A stretch of 63,516 bases of DNA, filler included, from Globobulimina sp. (lineage: Eukaryota), in assembly GCA_003354225.1 (NCBI GenBank). It is 28 parts of 28 records of this genome, joined end to end, with 100 filler letters (N's around TTAATTAATTAA, not from the genome) between each part and the next. Parts side by side here need not be neighbours in the genome. Positions count along the whole stretch, not along the records: positions 36,367 to 38,538 come from PIVH01008442.1; 27 more parts are not named here. One strand, given 5' to 3'. The stretch's first letter is position 1, and every line of letters begins with the position of its first letter. This document shows positions 8,972 through 59,076 of this stretch, in pieces. The translations under genes and the position numbers were made by a program. The notes under the pieces are model-generated. The model did not search any database. It worked only from the letters and a program-made list of their open reading frames with translations, and was not told where the DNA came from.

Positions 8972-9096
8972 AAGTGAATCAAAGCCCATTCAGACNNNNN
9001 NNNNNNNNNNNNNNNNNNNNNNNNNNNNNNNNNNNNNNNTTAATTAATTAANNNNNNNNNNNNNNNNNNNNNNNNNNNNNNNNNNNNNNNNNNNNT

Positions 9097-11211
9097 ACAC
9101 GCGAATATGTCGCAGTTAAATATTTAGGAGCTTTGCTTGACGTCCACCTCACGCTTGAGATATGGATGAAGCGAATTTATCACAAATCAAAGAATTCAGT
9201 CTTAAAAATTATGACAAATTTCGGTAACTCTGTCGTCATCAAAGCCTTTTGGATTCAACAATTGTTCAAATCCCTCATTATACCAAAAATGTATGGAATT
9301 GAATTATGGGGGTCCTCTACGCTGCAAATTCGATCAAAAATTAAAGCCTTATACAATGATATGATTAGGTTTAGTAATGGCGACAGTGATAATTCATCGC
9401 CGCTTCACATCCTTGAAATGCAAATCAAATGGCATAATTTTGAAGATTATATTGCTTATCGCCAAGCAAATCTATGGTCGAAGTTTATCCGATCACCAAA
9501 TACCAACGTCCTCTCAACATATATCGAGGAGAAGTATTGGCCGAATTGGATCAATCAACGTACAGAAGACAAAACAAATTATAGTATCAAAACGAAGAGA
9601 TTAAATGAAGAAAATGAGGTAAAATGTGAAGGAATCGCAATCAGCGATATTGAAATCATTGGATCAATAAAACGGAACAACCTAGAAAGTACGGCATGGG
9701 ATTTCGTTGGGAATGCAATCAAAGATGAATCATATAAATCAATCAAAATAAAAAACACGAAATCAAAGAACTATCCCATGAAACGAGGCTTATTCAATAC
9801 ATTATTTAATTCGGCGGTGTCTCTTGGGTCAACAGACTATAAATTTATGAAAAATATCGAATTTTGCGAGATTCCTAAATCTATTGCATCCTATCATGCT
9901 CCATTGCGCATACCCCACAATCTACAGCCACATATATACGATAACGAGAAAAAAGTGATTGATTTCAGCCAAGATTGGCTAAAACAACTGCTGTGTGAAA
10001 ATCAAATCGATCCAACATCGCTACAATTGGGATTCACCGATGGTTCGAACAAAAATCAATATGGAGGTTCTGGATTATTTTCCTGCTCCGCCCAATACTA
10101 TTTATATGATTTGTCGTACGACCAAATAATAAGAAACAAATTTGTAGATCCCGATAGAGAGAAGAACCATAATTCAATCTCCAATTATTTCTACCATGCG
10201 AGATCAGTGGGCATACGTTCAAGTATTGACCATTGTGAACTTGACGGAGTCGATTTGGTATTAGATGACTTCGATTATTATATAAAAATGATTGAGGCAA
10301 ATGACCCAAAACAAATCCCCGAGCATATTATGCTGATTATAGACAATATTGGTGTTATTAAGTGGATATCTGGTGAAAATCAGATAAAATCAACAATAGT
10401 ATATAAGAAAATTAAAAAAATACATAAGCAAATTGATGCATTAAAGGATTACCAAATTAAAGTCCATCTTGTATGGAAAAATTCGCATACAGGCGAACCA
10501 GGGAATGAATTGGCTGATATATTGGCCAAATTGGCAATGTTAAATCTATATCAATCCAGAAAGTGGCCTGAATATACTTTAAATCCTTCGATCAACGAAT
10601 GGCTGAATTATGATTTGGCGGCAATAAAAAAAGAACATAAACGAATTGCATGGCACAGCACATTGAATAAATTAAAAGCAAAATATAAACTAAACAAACG
10701 GAAAAAATACAAAAATCTATCCGGACTTTATGCCAAATGGAAGATATCTTATAATCAAATATTTAAAATTGAATTAAAAAACTTGGAGTTTATCAAATGG
10801 AAAAACATCTCAACCCTCCGAGTAGGCCACGGAATTTTGAATGCCCAATCAAAATGGAAACAAAACAAACAATGTATCCAAGAATATTGTCATAAATCGG
10901 AAACAGTCGAACATTACCTATTACAATGTCCGAATTATCATAATCTGAGAACTCAATTATTGGATGACTATGAAGAGGAAATTATTAATGCAATCCCTTC
11001 ATTTGAATGGCCAACAGAGAACGAGAAGATATTAAAAATATTATTATTTCCATTACAGGATCAATTAATTGATAAAACCATTCAGCAAAACAAAATAGAA
11101 TGGAAGCTATATAGCGATATCAGAATTTCTTGCCTCAATATGCTATCGGACTATATATTAAATACAAAGCGATTCTTAAATGCGTGGTCTTATAATTTCC
11201 ACACCTGGTGA
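9097..11211 (+). mobile_element. Non-LTR retrotransposon ORF2 3' half: RT C-terminus + RNase H + CCHC zinc knuckle
   Basis: Frame open from the contig edge. VKYLGALLD (RT motif 7), YGIELWG, RNase H FTDGS / CELDG / IIDN / W..SHTGEPGNELAD.LAK, C-terminal C....C...ETVEHYLLQCPNY. Confidence 0.9.
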
Positions 11212-25153: not shown

Positions 25154-27178
25154 TTAATAATCATTAGCTCCATAACTAACAACATCATTATTTCCATTTA
25201 AAAGTAACGTATATTGATGTCCTTTCTTCATATGTCTTAATCTCGATAAACAACCAATAAATACCAACATGACAACGAATAATAATGCAACAAATAAATA
25301 TGTAAATGTAGATTGCTGCGAATTATTACTATCATTCTCATTATCTACAGCCACATCTGCGGTATTTGGTGGCTGCCATTTATTTAAATATAATGATTTT
25401 AATTCAATCGACTCAATCTTTAACCTTTCAAATCCTTCTTTAATTAGATCAAAATATTCCGCCTCAGATAAAAATGGCGTAATAAATACGCCGCCGCCGT
25501 CATCATAAACATTGTTATCTGGATCGCCAATCTCCAATCTATCCCACAGAAAATCGAGTGGTTCATGGAACAATTCATCATCACACATACCATCGAATAA
25601 TTGCACCGCATACTTAACAATCTCATGCTGGACCGGATCCTTTTCGCCATTGAATAATAAATTACTTTTTTCCGGTACATCAATGCTTAAATCAAATAAA
25701 TATTTACCATCAACAGCTTGTGACAAAGGAATATCCGCCGCATACCGCAACATATTATGCGCATCGCACCATCCATCGACCTTATTATATCTCCATTTAT
25801 CAATCGAGCTGTCCTCCGCAATATATTTATACAAATGGCCATTGGTTGGATATATGAACACAGCCGATGCGCTTTCCAATGATTGCAAACCGACATTTAA
25901 TATGATATGATTTCTTTTGTCATGCCCCATGTCGCCATGCATTATCATTTCATACTGATTTAAACCGTCCCACCACTTATTATCCTCGTCATAAATATCA
26001 TTGATTGTACTAAAAATGCCGGCAAATCGCAATAATGTCGGCGTCCAATCTAATGCACTAAATAACGAATTTCTTTTTGTTCCTTTTGCACTTTCTGGGA
26101 TCACACCGCCTGCGATCAACGCAATTGTCCGGGTATTACCATCAAACAAAGTGCCTTTTGTGCCGCGGAATGGATAATTACATCCTCCCTTTTCTATATC
26201 TGCTCCATTATCAGTCGAAAATATTACTAATGTATTCGACCACAAATCATCATTCTCGCGCAATTTATCCATTATCTCACCAATAATATCATCGGTATAC
26301 AACGTATTTGTGCAATATTTCATTTTGGCGACGGCTTTTAACAGATCTTGGCATTGTGGCTCATATTTCGAGATCTCAATCATTGGCACATGCAATGTCT
26401 GCAACGCGGCAAATAAGAAAAAGGGCTCAACATTGCCATTCTCAATATTCTCATCGACATATTCAAATATTTGATCCCGGAACAAATCCATTGTATTAAA
26501 CTCCGAATCCTGCTCTGTCAAAGAAACGCATGTTTCTCCATCTTGAAAGAAGTCATAATGCGCAGTGTCACCAAACTCGATATCGGCATATTGCAAGGTA
26601 TCATAACCGATGGCACCTTGATAAAACCCATAAAAATGGTCAAAGCCCCGGTTTGTGGGCGTAAATGCATCGATGGCGTAGCCCATATGCCATTTGCCCA
26701 CAGCGTACGTCTTGTATCCTCCAATCGATTGTAGCCAGTTTGCGATGGTTGGCTGACCAATGGGAAGGCCGCCGATTTCCGTATAATCCCAAGGCAGCAT
26801 TTTGCCAAACCCCATCTTGTGCGCATACCTTCCGGTTATAAACTGTGAGCGCGACGGACTGCACATTAAATGCGAATAATGTTTCTCTAAACTTATCGAC
26901 TCTGCGTATAAAGCATCTATGTTTGGGGTGGGATAGGCGCCGCCATTATAACTCACATCGTTCCATCCAACATCATCCATCAAAATAAATACAATATTTG
27001 GCGCCCTCCACGTATTATCATCAGATATGGCTGCGGTTTTGGGCGTATCCAATTTATTTAAATTATAATTACTGTCTGACACTATTGGATCTGGAGCTGA
27101 TGCATGCAAAAACCATCTATTCTCATCAGATTCGAATCTTTGGGCTGGACACCAATCAGATTCAGCAGCGGATAATGA
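25154..27178 (-). CDS. Arylsulfatase B-like (S1, formylglycine-dependent) with C-terminal TM helix, 5' truncated
   Basis: PNIVFILMDDVGW, CSPSRSQFITGR, GKWHMG, RGFDHFYG, STDNG, PFRGTKG; TM segment FTYLFVALLFVVMLVFIG. Confidence 0.95.
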   Translation of the reverse strand, partial: SLSAAESDWCPAQRFESDENRWFLHASAPDPIVSDSNYNLNKLDTPKTAAISDDNTWRAPNIVFILMDDVGWNDVSYNGGAYPTPNIDALYAESISLEKHYSHLMCSPSRSQFITGRYAHKMGFGKMLPWDYTEIGGLPIGQPTIANWLQSIGGYKTYAVGKWHMGYAIDAFTPTNRGFDHFYGFYQGAIGYDTLQYADIEFGDTAHYDFFQDGETCVSLTEQDSEFNTMDLFRDQIFEYVDENIENGNVEPFFLFAALQTLHVPMIEISKYEPQCQDLLKAVAKMKYCTNTLYTDDIIGEIMDKLRENDDLWSNTLVIFSTDNGADIEKGGCNYPFRGTKGTLFDGNTRTIALIAGGVIPESAKGTKRNSLFSALDWTPTLLRFAGIFSTINDIYDEDNKWWDGLNQYEMIMHGDMGHDKRNHIILNVGLQSLESASAVFIYPTNGHLYKYIAEDSSIDKWRYNKVDGWCDAHNMLRYAADIPLSQAVDGKYLFDLSIDVPEKSNLLFNGEKDPVQHEIVKYAVQLFDGMCDDELFHEPLDFLWDRLEIGDPDNNVYDDGGGVFITPFLSEAEYFDLIKEGFERLKIESIELKSLYLNKWQPPNTADVAVDNENDSNNSQQSTFTYLFVALLFVVMLVFIGCLSRLRHMKKGHQYTLLLNGNNDVVSYGANDY

Positions 27179-27278
27179 NNNNNNNNNNNNNNNNNNNNNN
27201 NNNNNNNNNNNNNNNNNNNNNNTTAATTAATTAANNNNNNNNNNNNNNNNNNNNNNNNNNNNNNNNNNNNNNNNNNNN

Positions 27279-33994: not shown

Positions 33995-34200
33995 NNNNNN
34001 NNNNNNNNNNNNNNNNNNNNNNNNNNNNNNNNNNNNNNTTAATTAATTAANNNNNNNNNNNNNNNNNNNNNNNNNNNNNNNNNNNNNNNNNNNNATTTAT
34101 TACAATTTTTTCCAGCAAAAATTAGCGTTAATTTTTTAAGTCAAATCGCAAATGTTTTTCGTTACCAAACTTAAGCTTTATCATCACAACACTTTCTATC

Positions 34201-36001
34201 ATGCTGATAAACGCTCTTCGGAGATCAACGAAGCTACATCGTTCATTAATAGATCACAAAGTTACAATAAGACCGGCTTACCAGTCCTACAGTTTCGTAA
34301 ATACATACTATGAAATTTCTGGAATTTTCAAGAAACAAAAACAACTGCGACAGCATTATATGAAATACGGATTAATTTGTACTCCAATCGTTTATCCATT
34401 GCAAGTTGAGCTTTTAACACTGATTTCAATGCATAACACATAACACATAACAAACGGCAAATAGATGGATTTGGATTGCAATCATTATCAATTGCCGGCA
34501 CAAACACATTGTTACAACATATAAATTCTACTCATAACAGTTACAATCATTTGCATAAAAGATATCACTATGTTTCCTATGGTCGATACAGAAAATCGAC
34601 AGAAACACATAAACCAAATTGGAACAAAAAACATCTCCACGGACTACAATATGATACAAACAAAGAATTAAACCAAGTATTCGGTGCTGATTTCTCTGTC
34701 GTGGATCAGACCAAACCCGAGAAAAAGCGATTTGATTTCGAATATTTGGAGTTTTTAAAACAAAAATATCGAAATAATGCACCGAAACAACGTTCAAAAA
34801 CGAAAATTAAACTACAAAATACTGCAAAACGGCAGTTTTCCTCCGAAGCACAACCAGGCGCTCCGCTTAACAGTGGACGTTTAACAGCGCAGCAACAACA
34901 AATCATGGCCAAAGAAGATGAGATAAATCCAACCAGTTTAGGCGGCATCATTGTCATTGCCATTGGCGCCGCAATATTTTATTGGTTGTACAATATCGAT
35001 AATACCAAACATTCGGGAATTTCATCCTTTTTATCACGATTTAGTAAAACAAAAAGTATCGACGATTTTATCAACAAACAAAGCACAAAACCAATTCATA
35101 AAATACCTGACGATTGGACTGCATTTAAAGTCATTGTTGATCACATTAAAAATGCATGTTTATGTTGGTTTGATTCAAGTAAATATAATTCAGAATGGAT
35201 TTGGAGTAAATTATTCCGTTTATTTTACATTCCAAACGCAAAGTTATTACCACCTACAAAACAAACTGTATATACATTGGTGATCGACTTGGATACAGTT
35301 TGCCATTCGACATGGAGCAGAAAGGAAGGTAAAAGTTTTTTATTTTACTTTAAAAAGATTTTTCAGTGAAAAATGTTTACATTTTGTACAAACAAAAAGG
35401 ATTCGAACGTACAATGCGTCCGTTTTATAAGGAATTTATCTCTCGAATGTTTTTGAGTGGTTGGGAGATAGTAATATTTGGTCAATGTGAAGATTATGAT
35501 TGGATGGAATCTCCTGATTTTGTTAAATTGGATGGAAAGGGATATATTCAAAATTATTTATGGAATAAAGACTGTTATTATTTCAATGGGCATCGATGCA
35601 AAGATTTGAACCGTTTGGGTCGTGATTTACGGCATGTCATTGCCATTGATTCTGATGCCCGAAGTATACAAATGCAGCCACAAAATGGACTGGTTTTAAA
35701 TAAATGGAAACCTTCAAATGATAGCAATGCCCCAAATGATACCTCATTGTTACAATTAATTGAATTTCTGGAATATTTGGCAAAGGCTGAAGTGGCCGAT
35801 GTTAAACAGGTTTTGGCTGCATACCGAGGCAAAGATATTGCTCAGGAGTTTAGGAAAAGATATTTTGCTGCGGTTCAAGCACAATTACAACAGGTACAGC
35901 CACCGTATGAACCAGGCGATGATGAGGAAGAGGAACACGGACAGGAAGAGGGTGAGGAATCATATGAGGAACAAGAACAAGAACAGGAATATGCTGTATA
36001 A
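34201..36001 (+). CDS. TIM50: Mitochondrial import translocase TIM50 (NIF/FCP1-like domain)
   Basis: Presequence, one TM helix, LLPP..YTLVIDLD..HSTWSR..G..RP, KDLNRLGRDL.HVI.ID, QPQN. Introns 34292-34353, 34405-34464, 35329-35399 are all frame-consistent. Confidence 0.88.
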
Positions 36002-36844
36002 TATTACGATGTGCTGCATTTTAGACTGTATATTGTATCAAACATGTTGTGATCTCATTTGATTGGTCCATGTTACATTTTTAGTAACTCATCGAAATAT
36101 TCAAACAATCAAAAATAAATTATATAAATTTGTATATGTTCCGAACTGTTTTTAATTTTACAGCAAAAATTGTCCACAACTGAAGTCAAGCGATAGCCCC
36201 ATCTCGAAATCTGATAACCAAACATGACATGAGGTCATTTGTCCATAAGTGTTCTATTTTTTCTATNNNNNNNNNNNNNNNNNNNNNNNNNNNNNNNNNN
36301 NNNNNNNNNNTTAATTAATTAANNNNNNNNNNNNNNNNNNNNNNNNNNNNNNNNNNNNNNNNNNNNTGGAGGTACACATACTGTACATATGAAACTTGTC
36401 TGGGACAATATTCCCCTAACTAAACCCCCTCATACCTGGGTACATACACGATGTAAGAAATTTCAAATCCAAGGAATTTTTATTTGCATGTCAAAACGAC
36501 TAAAGGTGCCTTCAAGCAAATTTAGAGTTTATGGGGTCAATATCCGAGCCATAAATCTCCAAACAAATGTGTGAAAACACCAATGCATTTTTTTTTGACT
36601 TTAAACACAACCAAGTTGAACTAAAACAATCAAATCATTAACATATGGTAAGGTCCAACGCAAACAAAAATAAAACATTTTGTAGGTATACATGCGACTA
36701 CTGTTGCATAAGAACAAAACAATGGTGCATAAACTTATTTCATGTTAACAAAATTCTATTATATTTCAATTTACGGTCCGAAACCAATTTACGGTCCAAG
36801 AATAACTTCTAAGTTTTATTCAAATTGTCTCAAACCCCCTGACC

Positions 36845-37050
36845 AAATTAATTGCAAGTATTTCTCGTCTGTGATTGGTCTAAAATAACTTGCAAGTATT
36901 TCTCGTCTCTGATTGGTCTAAAATAACTTGCAAGTATTTCTCGTCTCTGAATGGTCTAAAATAACTTCAAAGTTTTTCTCGTCTCTGATTGGTCTAAAAT
37001 AACTTCAAAGTTTTTATCGTCTCTGATTGGTCCAAAATTAATTGCAAGTA
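36845..37050. repeat. Tandem array of about 5.3 x 38 bp, each unit with a reverse CCAAT box
   Basis: Unit AAATAACTTGCAAGTATTTCTCGTCTCTGATTGGTCTA; period 38 (36853, 36891, 36929...); no spacers. One unit has GAATGG. Confidence 0.95.
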
Positions 37051-37117
37051 ATTTTTATAAATGCATAGGTTTCGTCGACGTTTTTCCATTCTTATCGTTA
37101 TATACTGCGACATCATG
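37026..37117 (+). promoter_or_regulatory. Putative Pol II core promoter: CCAAT - TATA - initiator - Kozak ATG
   Basis: Last ATTGG at 37026-37030, TATAAA 37056-37061, Inr-like CCATTC with A at 37088, ACATCATG start at 37115. Confidence 0.55.
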
Positions 37118-37645
37118 TCTGTATTTATACCAACCAAATTCGGTGTTTCTGTCGAACTGAAACCCCATCGTAAAGCCCATATCGTCGCCTCTCATTGCGA
37201 AAAACGTGTTGGAAAGTCGACTTTCGACAAGGGTGTAGACATCAGGTTCCTCATCGAAACTGCGGTGACAATGGGTCAAATCACTAAAACGACAAACAAA
37301 ACGATAAAAGTCGTTCTCCATCTACCATGGTGTATCGGTAGAAGCTTCGACGGTTACGAATGTCATTTCGTTTTTGTAATCATCGCATTCAAGCCCTTCG
37401 AAGTGCTCACCATCTACCCAGACAGCTGTGCAAGACCAGAATTTGGACTATGTGAACGACCCCATGGCAACGAAGAAAGACCTCCGTGGTCCTGTTTCTC
37501 ACATCATGTCAAAGCAACCCCAGTTAGAAAGAATCATACACTTCGAAAGTGTAAATGTGCCTGCAAACGTCATGCAGTGCAAATATCAACCAACTGCGGC
37601 AGAGACGAAATGGTTTGGTTCAAGGAAAAATTCATTGAAAAATGA
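37115..37645 (+). CDS. 176-aa protein resembling bacterial polymorphic-toxin RNase domains (EndoU-/BECR-like) with Cys/His-rich tail
   Basis: HIVASH...GKSTF...IRFLIETAV..G....IG....G.....FVII.....VLTIYP follows the HI..RH-GKSxF-IG-TxYP pattern of RHS/Cdi C-terminal nucleases. Confidence 0.55.
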   Translation: MSVFIPTKFGVSVELKPHRKAHIVASHCEKRVGKSTFDKGVDIRFLIETAVTMGQITKTTNKTIKVVLHLPWCIGRSFDGYECHFVFVIIAFKPFEVLTIYPDSCARPEFGLCERPHGNEERPPWSCFSHHVKATPVRKNHTLRKCKCACKRHAVQISTNCGRDEMVWFKEKFIEK

Positions 37646-37664
37646 AAACATCAAATTCAACAAA

Positions 37665-38521
37665 CTAACCCAAACGGCCCTCTTCAGGGCCACCCATATA
37701 TAAAAAAGCTAATTTTGCACAACTAAAATAACATACATCCTTTTATTTTAATTTAATTATTTTATTTATTTATTTTGATTTTCCAGCGCTTTTACAAGCA
37801 GATCATTGTTAACACATAGAAACCAATCAATCAGTTTAGTTTTGACTTTAGACAGTTAATTTACTAAAGAGCATAGAGACAAGATATTCCCTGGTGGTGT
37901 AGCATTTGTTGGTGAAATCATGGCTCAAAGGGGAAAACCAGCTGAAAGTGCTGAAAGATTGAGCATGAATGTTGTTAAGGGTTTGAATGTGATGTGTGAA
38001 AGCATTTTGGCAAAAGATTCGTATAGTAGCAAAACGTTAAATCGTCAATTAGCTATGGCTAATACCAAATTATGTGTCTTCTTGAGTGCCGGCACATTCG
38101 ACTGTAACATTCGAGTTGTAACACGTTTTTATATGAAGTTCGTGTGTCTATGTAAAGTTGTTAAAGTTCATTTTACAAAACATAAATGCAGCGTCGAAAA
38201 GACATGATCTAGAAAATCGTGGTACGGTAAAACTTATTTAAGATTGAATTATCCAGTTGATTTACGTTTTTTATTCACCAGTTTGGCAAGAAAAGTAAGA
38301 CTGATAACATTCATTTTTTAAATAGGTTTTCTGTGAATAAATGAATTGAATTTGGTGTTAATAATCAAAATGAAATGTCAGTACCCTTTTCATCTCAAAA
38401 AGTGTGAAAACCTAAAGTTAACGAATATGTAAAGAAAACAAACACCAGTACATAATATCAAGACAGGATTTTAAACTTTTTTTACCGAATTGGTGGCCCT
38501 GAAGAGGGCCGTTTGGGTTAG
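37665..38521. mobile_element. 857-bp non-autonomous DNA transposon with perfect 30-bp TIRs
   Basis: CTAACCCAAACGGCCCTCTTCAGGGCCACC at 37665-37694 and its exact reverse complement at 38492-38521; no transposase ORF inside. Confidence 0.88.
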
Positions 38522-38638
38522 GTTATTTATTTATTGTCNNNNNNNNNNNNNNNNNNNNNNNNNNNNNNNNNNNNNNNNNNNNTTAATTAATTAANNNNNN
38601 NNNNNNNNNNNNNNNNNNNNNNNNNNNNNNNNNNNNNN

Positions 38639-40723
38639 AAGAATTCAGAAGTTGCCCAATATCGTTTATTAAAAGGTGCTGTGAAGTCTTCATTTAACCA
38701 GATTGTGTCCAATGTTTGGTTATTCACATTTTTATAATTTGCGAAATTCCCTTCAGTTTATTATTAACATGTTCAGCTCGCTGCAGCGGCAGAGATGTTT
38801 GGTGCTGATGACACGGTAAAAGAAGCCAGCAAAATGGATACGAAATCCTTCTATGCGGAGGAAGCAATGGATTTAAATATGGATACAGCGAAAGAAAAAG
38901 AGGAGGAAGATATTTTAATGCAGGATGATGGTGAAGATTTGGAGGATTTTATAGTTGAGAATGATGAGAATGAGAAGAAAGAAGAGATTGGTAAAGAAAT
39001 GACGGACGATATACAGTCGCAATCGCATGAGATACGCGATGGTGACCATGGTATGATGTATCACAGAAAGAGTACGCATGAAACATTTATGAATGGTGCC
39101 ACCATGTATGATGAAGACGGACAGAGATATTTGTTAATGGGCAATATCGGCGCAGTAATAATCCGCAAACAGGATATGTCAACAAATCAAATGGAAATGA
39201 ACATTATGAATGCATTAAATAATGGCAAATATTGTTTAGAGATTGATTTCTTTGATAAATCGAGGTTTCAAAGAGCTGTGACGATGAAAACCGATCATCA
39301 TTTTGTCTGCGGTGATATGAATTGTTTTGGCTTATTATTAGGCTCAGTACCAAACAATGATGACATTCGTGAAAGTATTGTTCGCTACAAACCAATCTCC
39401 AGAAATAACGTGTACCGCAGTTTTTCTTCAGAAAAAGATTGTGAATGGAACCATGTCTTACCACCCGGTGAGATTTGTGTTTGTGTCGGCTTGACCTCAA
39501 AATATGCATTGATTGCTACCAATAAACGCTATCTACGAATACTATCCATTGGTGGCTTACAAGTCCATGACATTCTATCCTTACCCAAAAATGTGATAAA
39601 TATCGCAGGGAATACCGGCGTTGAGAATAATAATACTGTCACTATCACCTTTGATGATTATTCATTATGGATTTTAGATTTGGATTTGAATAAGAAACTA
39701 TATGATGGATATTGTGCAGTTACCGACAATGAGAGTGTCATAACGCGAATATTTATGGTCAAACACAAAGTAATTAGCATTGACTCGAATAATTGTGTCC
39801 GTTTGTTATGTGATAATAGATTTGGTTACAATTGGATCGTTATTTTGGATATCAACAATCATTTAACTAAACAGTGCAATAAATTGAAAACAATCGATAG
39901 TATGCGGCCGAAAGTGGTATGGCCAGTTTATTTTGATTACGATGAACAGTCCCTAATGGTGATGGAGTTGCAATTTCAAGATTATCCAATCCCGTCGCAA
40001 ACCAATACGTATATTTTAACAGATTACAAGCTGTCATTGCCGTTATTAAATATGAAGCAATATGATATGGCGGAGAATGAGAAGGAGAGTGATAATGTCG
40101 CCATGGATATGTTTGGAGATTTCGAAGAGAAGATTATGAAACAATGTATGTTGCGTGAGTTTAATGAGGAAAATGATAAACAACACAAGAAAAAATTGTT
40201 AAAAGAGTATATAACTTTATTTAACCATTCATGCAAAAGCAATAAACAAGTATTGGCGTACGACATTGCTTTACATTTTCTGCCGTCGGAAAAAGCATTG
40301 GCGAATGCTATCAAAATTGCGATGCATAATCAGTTACCATTATTGGCGGAACAATTAAGCAATTTGGCCAAACAGAAGATAAATATAAATGATAATAATC
40401 ATAGTTATAATGCGAATATAAATAGTAATGATGTGATTCATGTGAAGAAACCGATGCGTAGTTTAGGTAAATTAAAAAGGCCGACAGCTAAATTGAGCGG
40501 AAGCAATAGGAAAACACTTGAGAATAATAATAATATTAATAATAAGGCAACGTCGTCAATGCAAAGGACTCAATTAATTGGAAAGAAAAGACCAAATAAT
40601 CCGTGTCAAAATAGTCAATCGGTAGAACCACCAAAAAAAAGAAATCCATTTTCTTGTACTGATGGTAAAAGAGGATCAAGTAATTACAATGATAAACACA
40701 ATAACTCCATTTTCTCTGTGTGA
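38639..40723 (+). CDS. WDHD1: WDHD1/AND-1/Ctf4/Mcl1 replisome hub (SepB/Mcl1_mid domain), 5' truncated
   Basis: F..GAT..RYL....IG, LEIDFFD, W...LP.GE..VCV, IAT..RYLRILSIGGLQ, helical C-terminus, KRNPF; intron 38714-38776. Confidence 0.8.
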
Positions 40724-56806: not shown

Positions 56807-58976
56807 CGAAACAACTGTGTGAAAAATCCAGTGTCAAATCCGCCCGCTCCACAAATTGTTGTCAAATTGCCTCCCATGGAAAGTAACATTGATATCTATC
56901 AGATTTTACCTGAAACAAATCGTTACGTATTAATCTATTCATATTCATATTACATACAAAGGCTTGCAAATGTTATTATCCTTATCCTTGCACAATTATT
57001 TAGAGCAACTTCCATTACTGACGCAAAAATGGCTACATTCAAACTTAAAATCATTAAATTCCAAAAAAAAACCAAAAAAGAAAAAATGTGGTTCTTCACC
57101 ACCTACGCCGCCATTACCACGCAACCCGCACTCAAAGAATAACAATGAAAATGTTCGAATTCCAATTTATGATTTAAAGACTGACTTAAATATCGATAGG
57201 AAAAATTATGAGTTTACAAATTTTGTTTGTTTATTAAATATTATCATTGAATCTTGTGTTAAGTTTGAATTTTTATCCAAAGAATTTAAGAATTTCATAT
57301 CGGATTACAATATTCAACAATTTAGAAACAAATCATTTAAAATGTTTAAAGAGGAATGCAATGTCAGTAAATTCCATAAAAGCGACAAATTAAATCAACT
57401 GTTTTTGACCTTATTTGATTCACCGAAGTTTATATTAGAAAATTGGAATAATTTCAATAATAATTCAAATAACAATAATTCAAATGTAACAAAGAAGAAT
57501 ATTTGTGGATTAGATGCTTATTTGGCATTATATAATGATGACAGATATATTACAATCCATTCTTTTTCTAATCCAGCTTCAATGGATGCGAGTGTTCGTA
57601 ATCAGGCCGCCGCAGAATTTAACTCCGTCAAAAATTCATTGGACATAAGTCGCGATAAAATTGCATTGAGTATATTTTATTGCACTGATTTTTTTGACCC
57701 ACATCATTATGCGTGGTGTTATATTGTTCGATTTAAAAAAGATGGCAATAAGATGCCTGTACTGGAGCTTGAAGCGGAGGAAATTGATAAAAAGCAAAAA
57801 AGAAATGTTTCTGCAGTGGAGGAAGAGAAAGAAATTATGATTGATAAGCGACGGAGGGAAACAATTGTAATTGATGATGATGAGGAGGAGGACGGGCAAG
57901 ATGCCAATGATAATAATCAACATTCAGATGAATTAGCATTGGATATCGATGCAAGTAAAACATCACAGAATGAGCAAGCAAATGAGAATAATTTGGATAT
58001 TGACAATACATTTCTAGAGAATGAGAACAGCAATGATGCGCTATTAGAATTAACTGCATTTAATAACACTGACAATGAGCCAGATTCAATGCCGTTAATA
58101 TTTGACATCGATGATGTTAATTCGAATAATATGAATTCGAACATAATGAACGTTCCAGAGAGTCAATCTCAAGAAAGAATATCTTCCCAACCCCGAGTGG
58201 CGGCAGCTGCCACTCCGCAAACTCAAGAGGTCGAAGAGGATGATGTGAATGAGCATAATATAGAAAATGTAGACAATATTGAGAATGGAGCACATATACA
58301 ATTATCCTTAGCAATGAATGCAAGCCATTCAGAAGCACAGCCATTACAAATACAAAATGAACCCGTGATTGGGCAGGAATTGCAGTTGCATGATTTGGAT
58401 GCGACGATGATGGACGATGAGGATGTTGAATGTGTTGGAGATAACACTCAGATGAATCTGTCAATAAATAGTGATGCTGGTTTACCGCAAACTATTTTGA
58501 ATGATATGCAACACCATAATCATAACCATAATTACAATCAAACACTGGCGGCCACTGTCATTAATGATGAGGTTGACACATTTCCAGAAACTCTAATGAA
58601 CGATGATGAGAATGACATTTTTATGCCAGATACATTAGCAAATACGGAGGTTGATGAGAGTCAAAATTCATTAGAATTAGATCTAACTCGTTCGAGTTTG
58701 CAAAGGAGCGATGGGATAATAATACAGACAGTGATTGATGATGGCGGCAATGGAATGGATTTAGATTTGGAGATTAAATCAATTGATGCGGAACAAGATA
58801 ACACTATGCTGCAAACTGAGAGAGATAATGCTTTAATGAGACGAAGATTAGAAATACTCAGTTCTGGTTCTGATGGCGACGAAAGTCAGGATTTGACCAA
58901 TAATAACAGTCATAGTCATAATCATAGTCACAGTGCATTGCAATTGGAGGCTGAGACTGGCGATGAAAATGAAGAA
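56807..58976 (+). CDS. Hypothetical protein with long acidic disordered region, truncated at both ends
   Basis: About 670 open codons; no family recognised. Confidence 0.65.
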
Positions 58977-59076
58977 NNNNNNNNNNNNNNNNNNNNNNNN
59001 NNNNNNNNNNNNNNNNNNNNTTAATTAATTAANNNNNNNNNNNNNNNNNNNNNNNNNNNNNNNNNNNNNNNNNNNN

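Follow-up and report, generated by a model that had tools for sequence, protein, structure and literature searches.

Among described proteins, those closest to the gene reported here are ribonuclease (RNase) toxins of bacteria. The toxins of the RNAse_A_bac family ('prokaryotic RNase A'), among them CdiA-CT of Yersinia kristensenii, form the C-terminal tips of large delivered proteins and are encoded beside an immunity gene. According to the accessible portion of PMC5435912, CdiA-CT relies on His175, Arg186, Thr276 and Tyr278, the last often being Phe in homologs; the accessible portion of PMC7297114 gives H170/H175 as the conserved N-terminal pair and treats the prokaryotic RNase A-like and EndoU toxins as one superfamily. 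Short EndoU_bacteria domains (~95 aa) follow the pattern RRHILxGDxTGGGH ... K[ST]xFP ... IxTxYPT, and the Ntox50 toxins YxiD-CTD (9v8i) and MafB2-CT (8hhj) possess a C-terminal HxVP histidine. In a window of 63,516 nt from Globobulimina sp. (GCA_003354225.1), by which we mean the whole stretch of DNA analysed, gene P0001 (37115..37645, plus strand, in PIVH01008442.1) encodes a protein whose N-terminal domain, judged by fold and profile comparison, is very probably a toxin-type RNase of the BECR / RNase A-like / EndoU assemblage. Unlike RNAse_A_bac toxins, P0001 carries this domain at its N-terminus, stands alone, continues into a Cys/His-rich tail, has no immunity gene within 2.2 kb and lies in a eukaryotic expression cassette; unlike the Ntox50 toxins, its family shows T-x-Y/F-P in place of HxVP.

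The sequence context of P0001 is the contig 36367-38538 (2,172 bases) only, the rest of the window being unrelated. The coding sequence is the longest open reading frame (ORF) of that contig; it is intronless and consists of 176 codons and TGA, with no internal stop. Its translation contains HIVASH (residues 22-27), GKSTF (33-37), CIGRSFDG (73-80) and TIYP (99-102), and Cys and His number 10 each in the whole protein; the motif order that had been read from this ORF in a preliminary description (HIVASH, GKSTF, IG....G, TIYP, then a Cys/His-rich tail) is all present. P0002, which comes from another source, is identical to P0001 at 128/176 positions (73%) without a gap, with a matching start Met (37115) and end. 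Employing phmmer, we searched 1.84 billion representatives exhaustively and obtained 6 proteins of 162-182 aa at E <= 0.001. Because P0002 aligns gap-free from a common start Met and phmmer recovered 6 proteins, the frame is no chance ORF; homologs preserve it, and the ORF is real and conserved.

With one further cluster member added after the phmmer search, the family comprises 8 members (P0001-P0008): P0001, its close relative P0002 and six that are distant. Their alignment is referred to as A1. All are unnamed, stand-alone proteins of 162-195 aa encoded on contigs of 959-4742 bases. Twelve positions of the N-terminal domain are invariant (H22, H27, S35, F37, L46, I47, G54, H69, P71, G75, C83 and P102), as are C105, C113, C127, H131, C146 and C148 in the tail. 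T99 is kept in 7/8 members, position 101 is Y or F in every member, and a Lys or Arg flanks S35 (position 34 or 36) in all eight. A signal-peptide-like start is absent in seven of the members, which speaks against disulfides of a secreted protein; P0005 has a long N-terminus, apparently from a gene call that was over-extended. A profile search of 320-2000-aa proteins returned no longer or fused form, which is weak evidence. Pattern scans of metagenome contigs (P0006, A2) confirmed no relative. The earlier view of P0001 as a stand-alone protein with no signal peptide or delivery domain is supported.

Profile comparison linked the family to bacterial toxin domains. Domains of PF14436 (EndoU_bacteria) were found in 3/401 Bacillota, 5/401 Actinomycetota and 7/401 Pseudomonadota genomes, those of PF18431 (RNAse_A_bac) in 9/401 Pseudomonadota genomes (7 full-length ones were used), and those of PF15542 in 4/386 genomes (2 full-length). 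Using hhalign, A1 was aligned with the seven RNAse_A_bac domains at 75.5% (E 2.4e-5, score 36.0, 84 columns over the whole domain), below the usual 90%+, and with five short EndoU_bacteria domains at 55% (E 1.2e-4, score 31.2, 78 columns). The positive control, short against long EndoU, gave 96.8% (E 2.9e-10, score 59.2, 67 columns). After shuffling of columns, the score against RNAse_A_bac averaged 11.1 (sd 2.4, max 22.3) and never reached 36.0 in 200 shuffles; against short EndoU the maximum was 18.0, and 0/200 reached 31.2. Ntox50 was ruled out as a sequence relative, the comparison with two domains only giving 0.5% (E 0.11, score 14.9, 15 columns).

The alignments with RNAse_A_bac and with short EndoU agree on the residues that matter. 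In both, H22 and H27 stand opposite the bacterial His pair, S35-x-F opposite S/T-x-F, and (L/I)T(I/A)(Y/F)P opposite I/L-T-A/G-Y/F-P of the bacteria; the short EndoU pattern thus finds partners in the P0001 family for its two His, for S-x-F and for TxYP. Likewise, H22, H27, S35 and T99 align with the motifs of EndoU_bacteria and reproduce the H, H, [SNT], [SNT] pattern listed for that family (table of Zhang et al. 2012, in the accessible portion of PMC3482391). EndoU_bacteria is also the sole Pfam family with a comparable match: in hmmscan of the 8 members it was matched by one, P0002, with residues 13-104 aligned to model positions 51-129 of 129. Among the bacterial domains we observed one in an Actinomycetota genome (L128:1492-1764, minus strand) that falls just below the EndoU_bacteria cut-off with 22.2 bits. 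It contains RHILARH, the His spacing (five residues, HILxRH) of the P0001 family and of RNAse_A_bac, and ends in QVYPI; this domain may be an intermediate between EndoU_bacteria and RNAse_A_bac.

Structure prediction points to the same assemblage. The RNase domain (37115..37426, plus strand; residues 1-104) is predicted to be a helix followed by a four-stranded meander. A model of residues 1-106 built from the family alignment had pLDDT 89.6 and pTM 0.82, with DSSP elements H17-28, H43-53, E55-59, E63-69, E85-92 and E95-103. It forms a single helix-plus-meander unit to which two short strands are added N-terminally, and T99 lies in the last strand. The model thereby shows the features that define the BECR fold in the accessible portion of PMC3482391: an N-terminal helix, a four-stranded meander and a conserved S/T on the fourth strand. 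In Foldseek searches the domain matched 8hhj_B (E 7.6e-3, probability 1.00, TM 0.54/0.56) and 5e3e_B (probability 0.90), on which it superimposed as an RNase A-like fold; the full-length model retrieved the same families. Two BECR units, as in the long EndoU_bacteria form and XendoU, were not seen, the model consisting of a single unit.

Other searches with P0001 were nearly empty. The Atlas gave PBECR3 as the only lead for the N-terminal domain, at 0.86 and below the trusted level; Pfam returned eIF2_C alone (E 0.0065, below its cut-off) and NCBIfam 0 families; phmmer against the PDB found 0 matches, and a profile search of the PDB only FKBP (E 0.15), which we took as chance. On sequence grounds we place the domain as a remote, minimal, single-unit member of the superfamily that is nearest to RNAse_A_bac and below every Pfam threshold. 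The toxin-type nuclease of EndoU-like or BECR kind proposed in the preliminary description is thus supported for residues ~1-104 by structural search and hhalign. The layout of polymorphic toxins, in which a large delivered protein bears the toxin domain at its C-terminus, was not found, as the domain is N-terminal in 8/8 members. Eukaryotic XendoU/EndoU enzymes belong to the same broad superfamily, and metal-independent His-His chemistry is expected as a trait in common with P0001; in the accessible portion of PMC7297114 they are described as two-unit domains of larger size that carry an additional helical domain, encoded by intron-rich genes, whereas P0001 is a minimal single unit and toxin-like.

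The putative active site would unite H22 and H27 (HxxxxH in helix 17-28) with S35, K34 and, from the last strand (TIYP), T99 and Y101. This set, an N-terminal His pair plus a last-strand Thr and Tyr/Phe, is aligned to the residues of bacterial RNAse_A_bac, and on that analogy we consider it reasonably likely that P0001 is catalytically active. Alternatively, catalysis may have been lost, and the protein may be a zinc-dependent RNA- or protein-binding factor, for example a chromatin protein or a sperm/egg nuclear basic protein co-expressed with histones. In line with this, P0001 is very basic (K+R 29 vs D+E 17; 21-32 vs 8-20 in the family), its tail is conserved as well as the N-terminal domain, the gene has a histone-style cassette, and a free RNase without an inhibitor should harm the cell. 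Pseudo-enzymes usually lose catalytic residues. In this family, however, the positions that serve catalysis in the bacterial enzymes are those best conserved (H22, H27 and S35 in 8/8, T99 in 7/8, an aromatic residue at 101 in 8/8), and we regard a loss of activity as unlikely.

The basic Cys/His-rich tail (37427..37642, plus strand; residues 105-176, 72 aa) belongs to no known family. In the full-length model it has pLDDT 56-78. The Atlas provided no usable match, family or look-alike for it, and Pfam gave sub-threshold matches in one member only (SWIM, E 0.08; Sha_B_N, E 0.0029). The six invariant Cys and His of the tail, together with H69 and C83 of the N-terminal domain, are eight candidate metal ligands that would suffice for two zinc sites; the conservation pattern suggests that the tail binds zinc.

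Downstream of the gene lies a eukaryotic RNA signal. A histone 3' stem-loop element at 37671..37716 (plus strand) matches the full model (1-46) of RF00032 with 41.5 bits (E 7.3e-9), and a second at 38471..38515 (minus strand, stem-loop 38510-38495) matches with 36.6 bits (E 4.8e-7), the gathering score being 34 bits. These are the only two Rfam matches in the whole window, and U7 is not among them. The first element starts 25 nt past the stop codon and its stem 30 nt past it; GGCCCT-CTTC-AGGGCC at 37676-37691 is followed by ACCCA and an A-rich run (TATATAAAAAAGC), and the minimum free energy fold is a six-pair stem with a four-base loop (z -3.1). A canonical histone element lies 25-60 nt from the stop and has a G-C second stem pair and U at loop position 3 (accessible portion of 10.64898/2026.10.14.759114); the first element agrees on all three. 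Compared with the C. elegans histone hairpin (Table 1 in the accessible portion of PMC1924863), it is identical at 20/22 positions, including the unusual C as first loop base; this resemblance to the nematode type could at most hint at what sort of organism is the source. An A-run (AAAAAAG) occurs within ~12 nt behind both stem-loops.

The two elements share an identical 30-nt core, CTAACCCAAACGGCCCTCTTCAGGGCCACC, and the 19-nt stem-loop core occurs 2 times against 0 expected by chance. They coincide with an inverted repeat (37654-37697 / 38489-38532; 44 nt, 89% complementary), which the preliminary description had called a terminal inverted repeat element. By their sequence, the arms are two convergent histone 3' stem-loops, so that reading is replaced. 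The second stem-loop would mark the 3' end of a minus-strand gene, plausibly for a histone, that lies past 38538, where the contig stops, and P0001 is probably located at the margin of a cluster of histone genes. About 30 nt past the second stem-loop (38465-38475, minus strand) AAAATCC contains AATCC; the first has only CATCC ~50 nt downstream. An AATCC core lies behind C. elegans histone hairpins (accessible portion of PMC1924863), and its occurrence behind the second stem-loop may be chance for a 5-mer. A frame overlapping the coding sequence (GTG 37428 / ATG 37464 to stop 37703, 91 aa), earlier suggested to be a truncated partner gene, runs into the first stem-loop; its best Pfam match (E 0.092) was under threshold, and it was rejected. 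The spacer between the convergent stem-loops (37717..38470) holds no supported gene, its ORF 37920-38207 being without a family match.

The public run X1 contains the contig and is probably its source, hence not independent; 67 of its contigs were aligned. Few of them cover the ORF and the spacer, records 4 and 6 showing 1 difference apiece, and many pile up on both stem-loop cores, 21 fitting both arms. From runs X2 and X3 of the same sample no contig aligned, which bears neither on expression nor on absence. These contigs diverge on either side of the core, with loose ends at 37659, 37692 and 37707. Many loci with a common core and different flanks fit a 3' element of a gene family, not a whole-length transposon. 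It is therefore highly improbable that the inverted repeat is a transposon beside the gene, resembling a miniature inverted-repeat transposable element: its arms lie 791 nt apart where X1 contigs pile up, as such an element would have it, yet both arms match the histone stem-loop model in full, no target-site duplication was seen at the flanks, and the interior is covered by few X1 contigs, unlike the arms, whereas a multi-copy element would repeat throughout.

Upstream of the gene, Tandem Repeats Finder detected a 38-bp tandem repeat (36845..37050, plus strand; 5.4 copies, period 38, 91% matches, score 314). ATTGG, that is CCAAT on the opposite strand (context GACCAATCAG), occurs at 36874, 36912, 36988 and 37026, in 4/5 full units; the unit at 36950 has AATGG instead, and the copies are in register. 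The array is a probable promoter-proximal set of CCAAT boxes. In the sixth, partial unit, TATAAAT (37056..37062, plus strand) lies 53 nt before ATG 37115 and would serve as TATA box; the in-frame ATG 37061 inside it is probably not transcribed. Just upstream of the repeat, at 36732-36877, where AATTTACGGTCC occurs twice, many run X1 contigs aligned (bins of 53-73 vs ~6 beside), and one X1 contig connects 36816 with 37001, the two lying on opposite strands. A further repeated element of the promoter region, or an inverted form of the repeat array, may be present here.

The contig has a coding density of 24% (531/2172 bases) and 4 sigma-70-like sites against a shuffle mean of 7.1. With a TATA box, CCAAT boxes, low coding density and no sigma-70-like excess, its sequence supports a eukaryote-like setting, and the eukaryote-style cassette put forward in the preliminary description is borne out. 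The likeness to replication-dependent histone genes extends over the whole unit: an intronless gene, TATA and CCAAT boxes, a six-pair/four-base stem-loop, ACCCA, an A-rich run and a convergent neighbouring element. Unlike histone genes, P0001 shows neither a histone fold nor a Pfam histone match, and no clear U7-binding purine element follows it; unlike the stem-loop core, its ORF region draws no pile-up of X1 contigs.

This setting also bears on the suspicion of bacterial contamination. In the accessible portions of PMC5435912 and PMC7297114, earlier work on RNase A-like toxins reported no invertebrate or lower-eukaryote homologs or suspected contamination, and Mushegian et al. considered two 'invertebrate' homologs probable bacterial contaminants (PMC7297114). 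The domain type is overwhelmingly bacterial and the assembly may be mixed, as one would expect if an ordinary toxin cassette had entered it. Against this stand the low coding density, the lack of an adjacent immunity ORF and of a sigma-70-like excess, the two Rfam histone stem-loops, the absence of any NCBIfam match, and the seven relatives, all stand-alone with a eukaryote-style Cys/His tail. Moreover, a pattern scan of prokaryote genomes (185,579 species) with A2 confirmed no relative. Contamination is close to refuted. As for an immunity gene, the contig contains no conserved ORF in the 890 bases downstream or the 748 upstream of the ORF.

A viral origin was weighed as well, the preliminary description having proposed a link to Polintons or nucleo-cytoplasmic large DNA viruses. 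The gene is intronless, the DNA around it AT-rich and the family an orphan encountered on short contigs only, and toxin domains have passed to nucleo-cytoplasmic large DNA viruses (accessible portion of PMC3482391), all of which would suit a contig that stems from a eukaryote's large DNA virus or Polinton-like element. However, a pattern scan of viral contigs (P0001) confirmed no relative, and the stem-loop core had no exact match in the viral contigs. The best viral structural matches were phage polyvalent-protein nucleases (E >= 0.035, the best at 0.035), giant-virus entries having probability <= 0.25. PHROGs gave 0 families for 8/8 proteins, no viral hallmark gene is on the contig, and the histone stem-loop and CCAAT/TATA boxes are nuclear signals for RNA polymerase II and stem-loop-binding protein (SLBP). 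A viral source is thus very unlikely, and the proposed link found no support. The further idea of an anti-translation, defence or selfish module is still speculation: none of the 8 proteins was assigned to a family by PADLOC, and the 2.2-kb contig has no immunity-like neighbour.

The strongest alternative concerns the stem-loop rather than the protein. The protein may be as described, with the stem-loop a relic or duplicate of the 3' end of a neighbouring histone gene or a cluster boundary, and with an mRNA polyadenylated downstream. The identical core in both regions and its occurrence in many X1 contigs would make it mobile or multi-copy, P0001 is not a histone, and histone genes of C. elegans carry poly(A) signals behind their hairpins too (accessible portion of PMC1924863). 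However, the element occupies the sense strand, correctly oriented, at canonical distance from the stop and with a match to all 46 model positions; as in histone genes, introns are lacking and the predicted 5' leader is short; and no canonical AATAAA was seen on the plus strand from the stem-loop to 37800. We hold such a bystander element to be improbable, though a case to be reckoned with. By contrast, use of the stem-loop by P0001 for its own 3' end appears fairly probable from the arrangement of the sequence.

Taken together, we favour, with some confidence, a eukaryotic nuclear gene that encodes a small, basic, stand-alone RNase derived from bacterial toxin RNases and that is expressed through a histone-like mRNA. 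The catalytic domain would go back to polymorphic-toxin RNases of bacteria, namely those of the RNase A-like / EndoU group, with CdiA-CT of Y. kristensenii (RNAse_A_bac) and short bacterial EndoU nucleases as its nearest relatives. H22/H27, with S35, a neighbouring Lys/Arg (K34) and T99/Y101, would cut RNA without metal and leave 2',3'-cyclic phosphate ends; metal-independent cleavage is proposed because the equivalent residues act so in bacterial enzymes. The tail would bind zinc and either aim the enzyme at a substrate or restrain it, in place of the missing immunity protein. The mRNA would be cut just past the stem-loop, bound by SLBP and devoid of poly(A), as is a replication-dependent histone mRNA, and the enzyme would be made only alongside histone mRNAs, in S phase or from maternal stores. 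The boldest version, in which a eukaryote captured an RNase of interbacterial warfare, joined it to a new zinc-binding tail and a histone cassette and makes it only under SLBP/stem-loop control, we consider doubtful.

Several observations weigh against the favoured reading. No Foldseek match of the full-length or N-terminal model reached E <= 0.001. In hmmscan, P0002 scored 12.7 bits against EndoU_bacteria (cut-off 25.3, E 0.16), and RNAse_A_bac (cut-off 27 bits) was matched by 0/8 members at E <= 10. Comparison of A1 with eleven long EndoU_bacteria domains gave 2% (E 0.022, score 19.5, 58 columns), and the hhalign probabilities are moderate, with both profiles thin (Neff 2.2-3.7). In P0006, N replaces T99. 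The purine-rich downstream element is an A-run only, with no clear U7-binding site. The link between the gene and the stem-loop is known from one locus, and the stem-loop could be a copied fragment of a neighbouring histone gene 3' end. The contig is 2.2 kb in size, and the assembly may be a mixture of organisms, as G+C content at third codon positions (GC3) ranges from 0.18 to 0.58 between window contigs.

The GC3 of the ORF itself (0.42) falls inside this 0.18-0.58 spread, so that composition is uninformative on foreign origin. The window (1-63516) is composed of 28 unrelated contigs of 2170-2174 bases each, sorted by length and separated by spacers N44-TTAATTAATTAA-N44; anything that seems to span a spacer, neighbourhoods included, is an artefact, and the regular 2272-base 'repeats' are the spacers. 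None of the other contigs is similar to 36367-38538 in DNA or protein comparison. Pfam families were assigned to 7/18 long ORFs on them (PPR, WW, sulfatase, Ctf4/Mcl1, NIF phosphatase and PP2C), all of an ordinary eukaryotic kind and in keeping with a eukaryotic setting, the remaining 11 being without one. Contigs at 9052-11211, 25154-27226, 38768-40723, 56934-59024 and others are nearly all one open frame (600-719 aa), and the source assembly looks intron-poor, divergent and possibly mixed. In a NIF/FCP1-type phosphatase gene at 34437-36001 (separate contig, 34095-36266), a single stop at 35367-35369 splits the frame, and the two open frames overlap at this stop by a few codons. This suggests a very short intron (~30-60 nt) and hints at the intron style of at least one organism of the assembly.

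What is new here is a conserved eukaryote-style family of RNase A-like/EndoU toxin type, its fusion to an undescribed Cys/His tail, and its histone-type cassette. To our knowledge, the histone stem-loop is considered exclusive to histone mRNAs. Within partial literature coverage, with sources accessible in part, we found no relevant exception in the form of a non-histone gene with a histone stem-loop; literature on PF18431/RNAse_A_bac and toxin transfer, likewise partly covered, described no eukaryotic family of the P0001 type. That eukaryotes have received polymorphic-toxin domains is known (accessible portion of PMC3482391). A toxin relative placed behind eukaryotic promoter boxes and before a eukaryote-only RNA signal is direct evidence that toxins of this type can become resident eukaryotic genes.

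Should the boldest version be true, P0001 would mark two firsts: a non-histone protein-coding gene under the histone 3'-end machinery, and a bona fide 'prokaryotic RNase A' encoded by a eukaryote. It would bear on the proposal that animal RNase A originated by transfer of such a toxin; the P0001 family has no sequence link of its own to vertebrate RNase A. A non-histone gene using the histone stem-loop would be a natural experiment on the use of SLBP-coupled expression. How a cell tolerates a toxin-type RNase without an inhibitor is a question for which the conserved Cys/His tail is an obvious candidate. In the organism, the protein could be a selfish maternal/zygotic toxin, or an RNA-decay enzyme coupled to replication and acting, for example, on histone or other S-phase RNAs.

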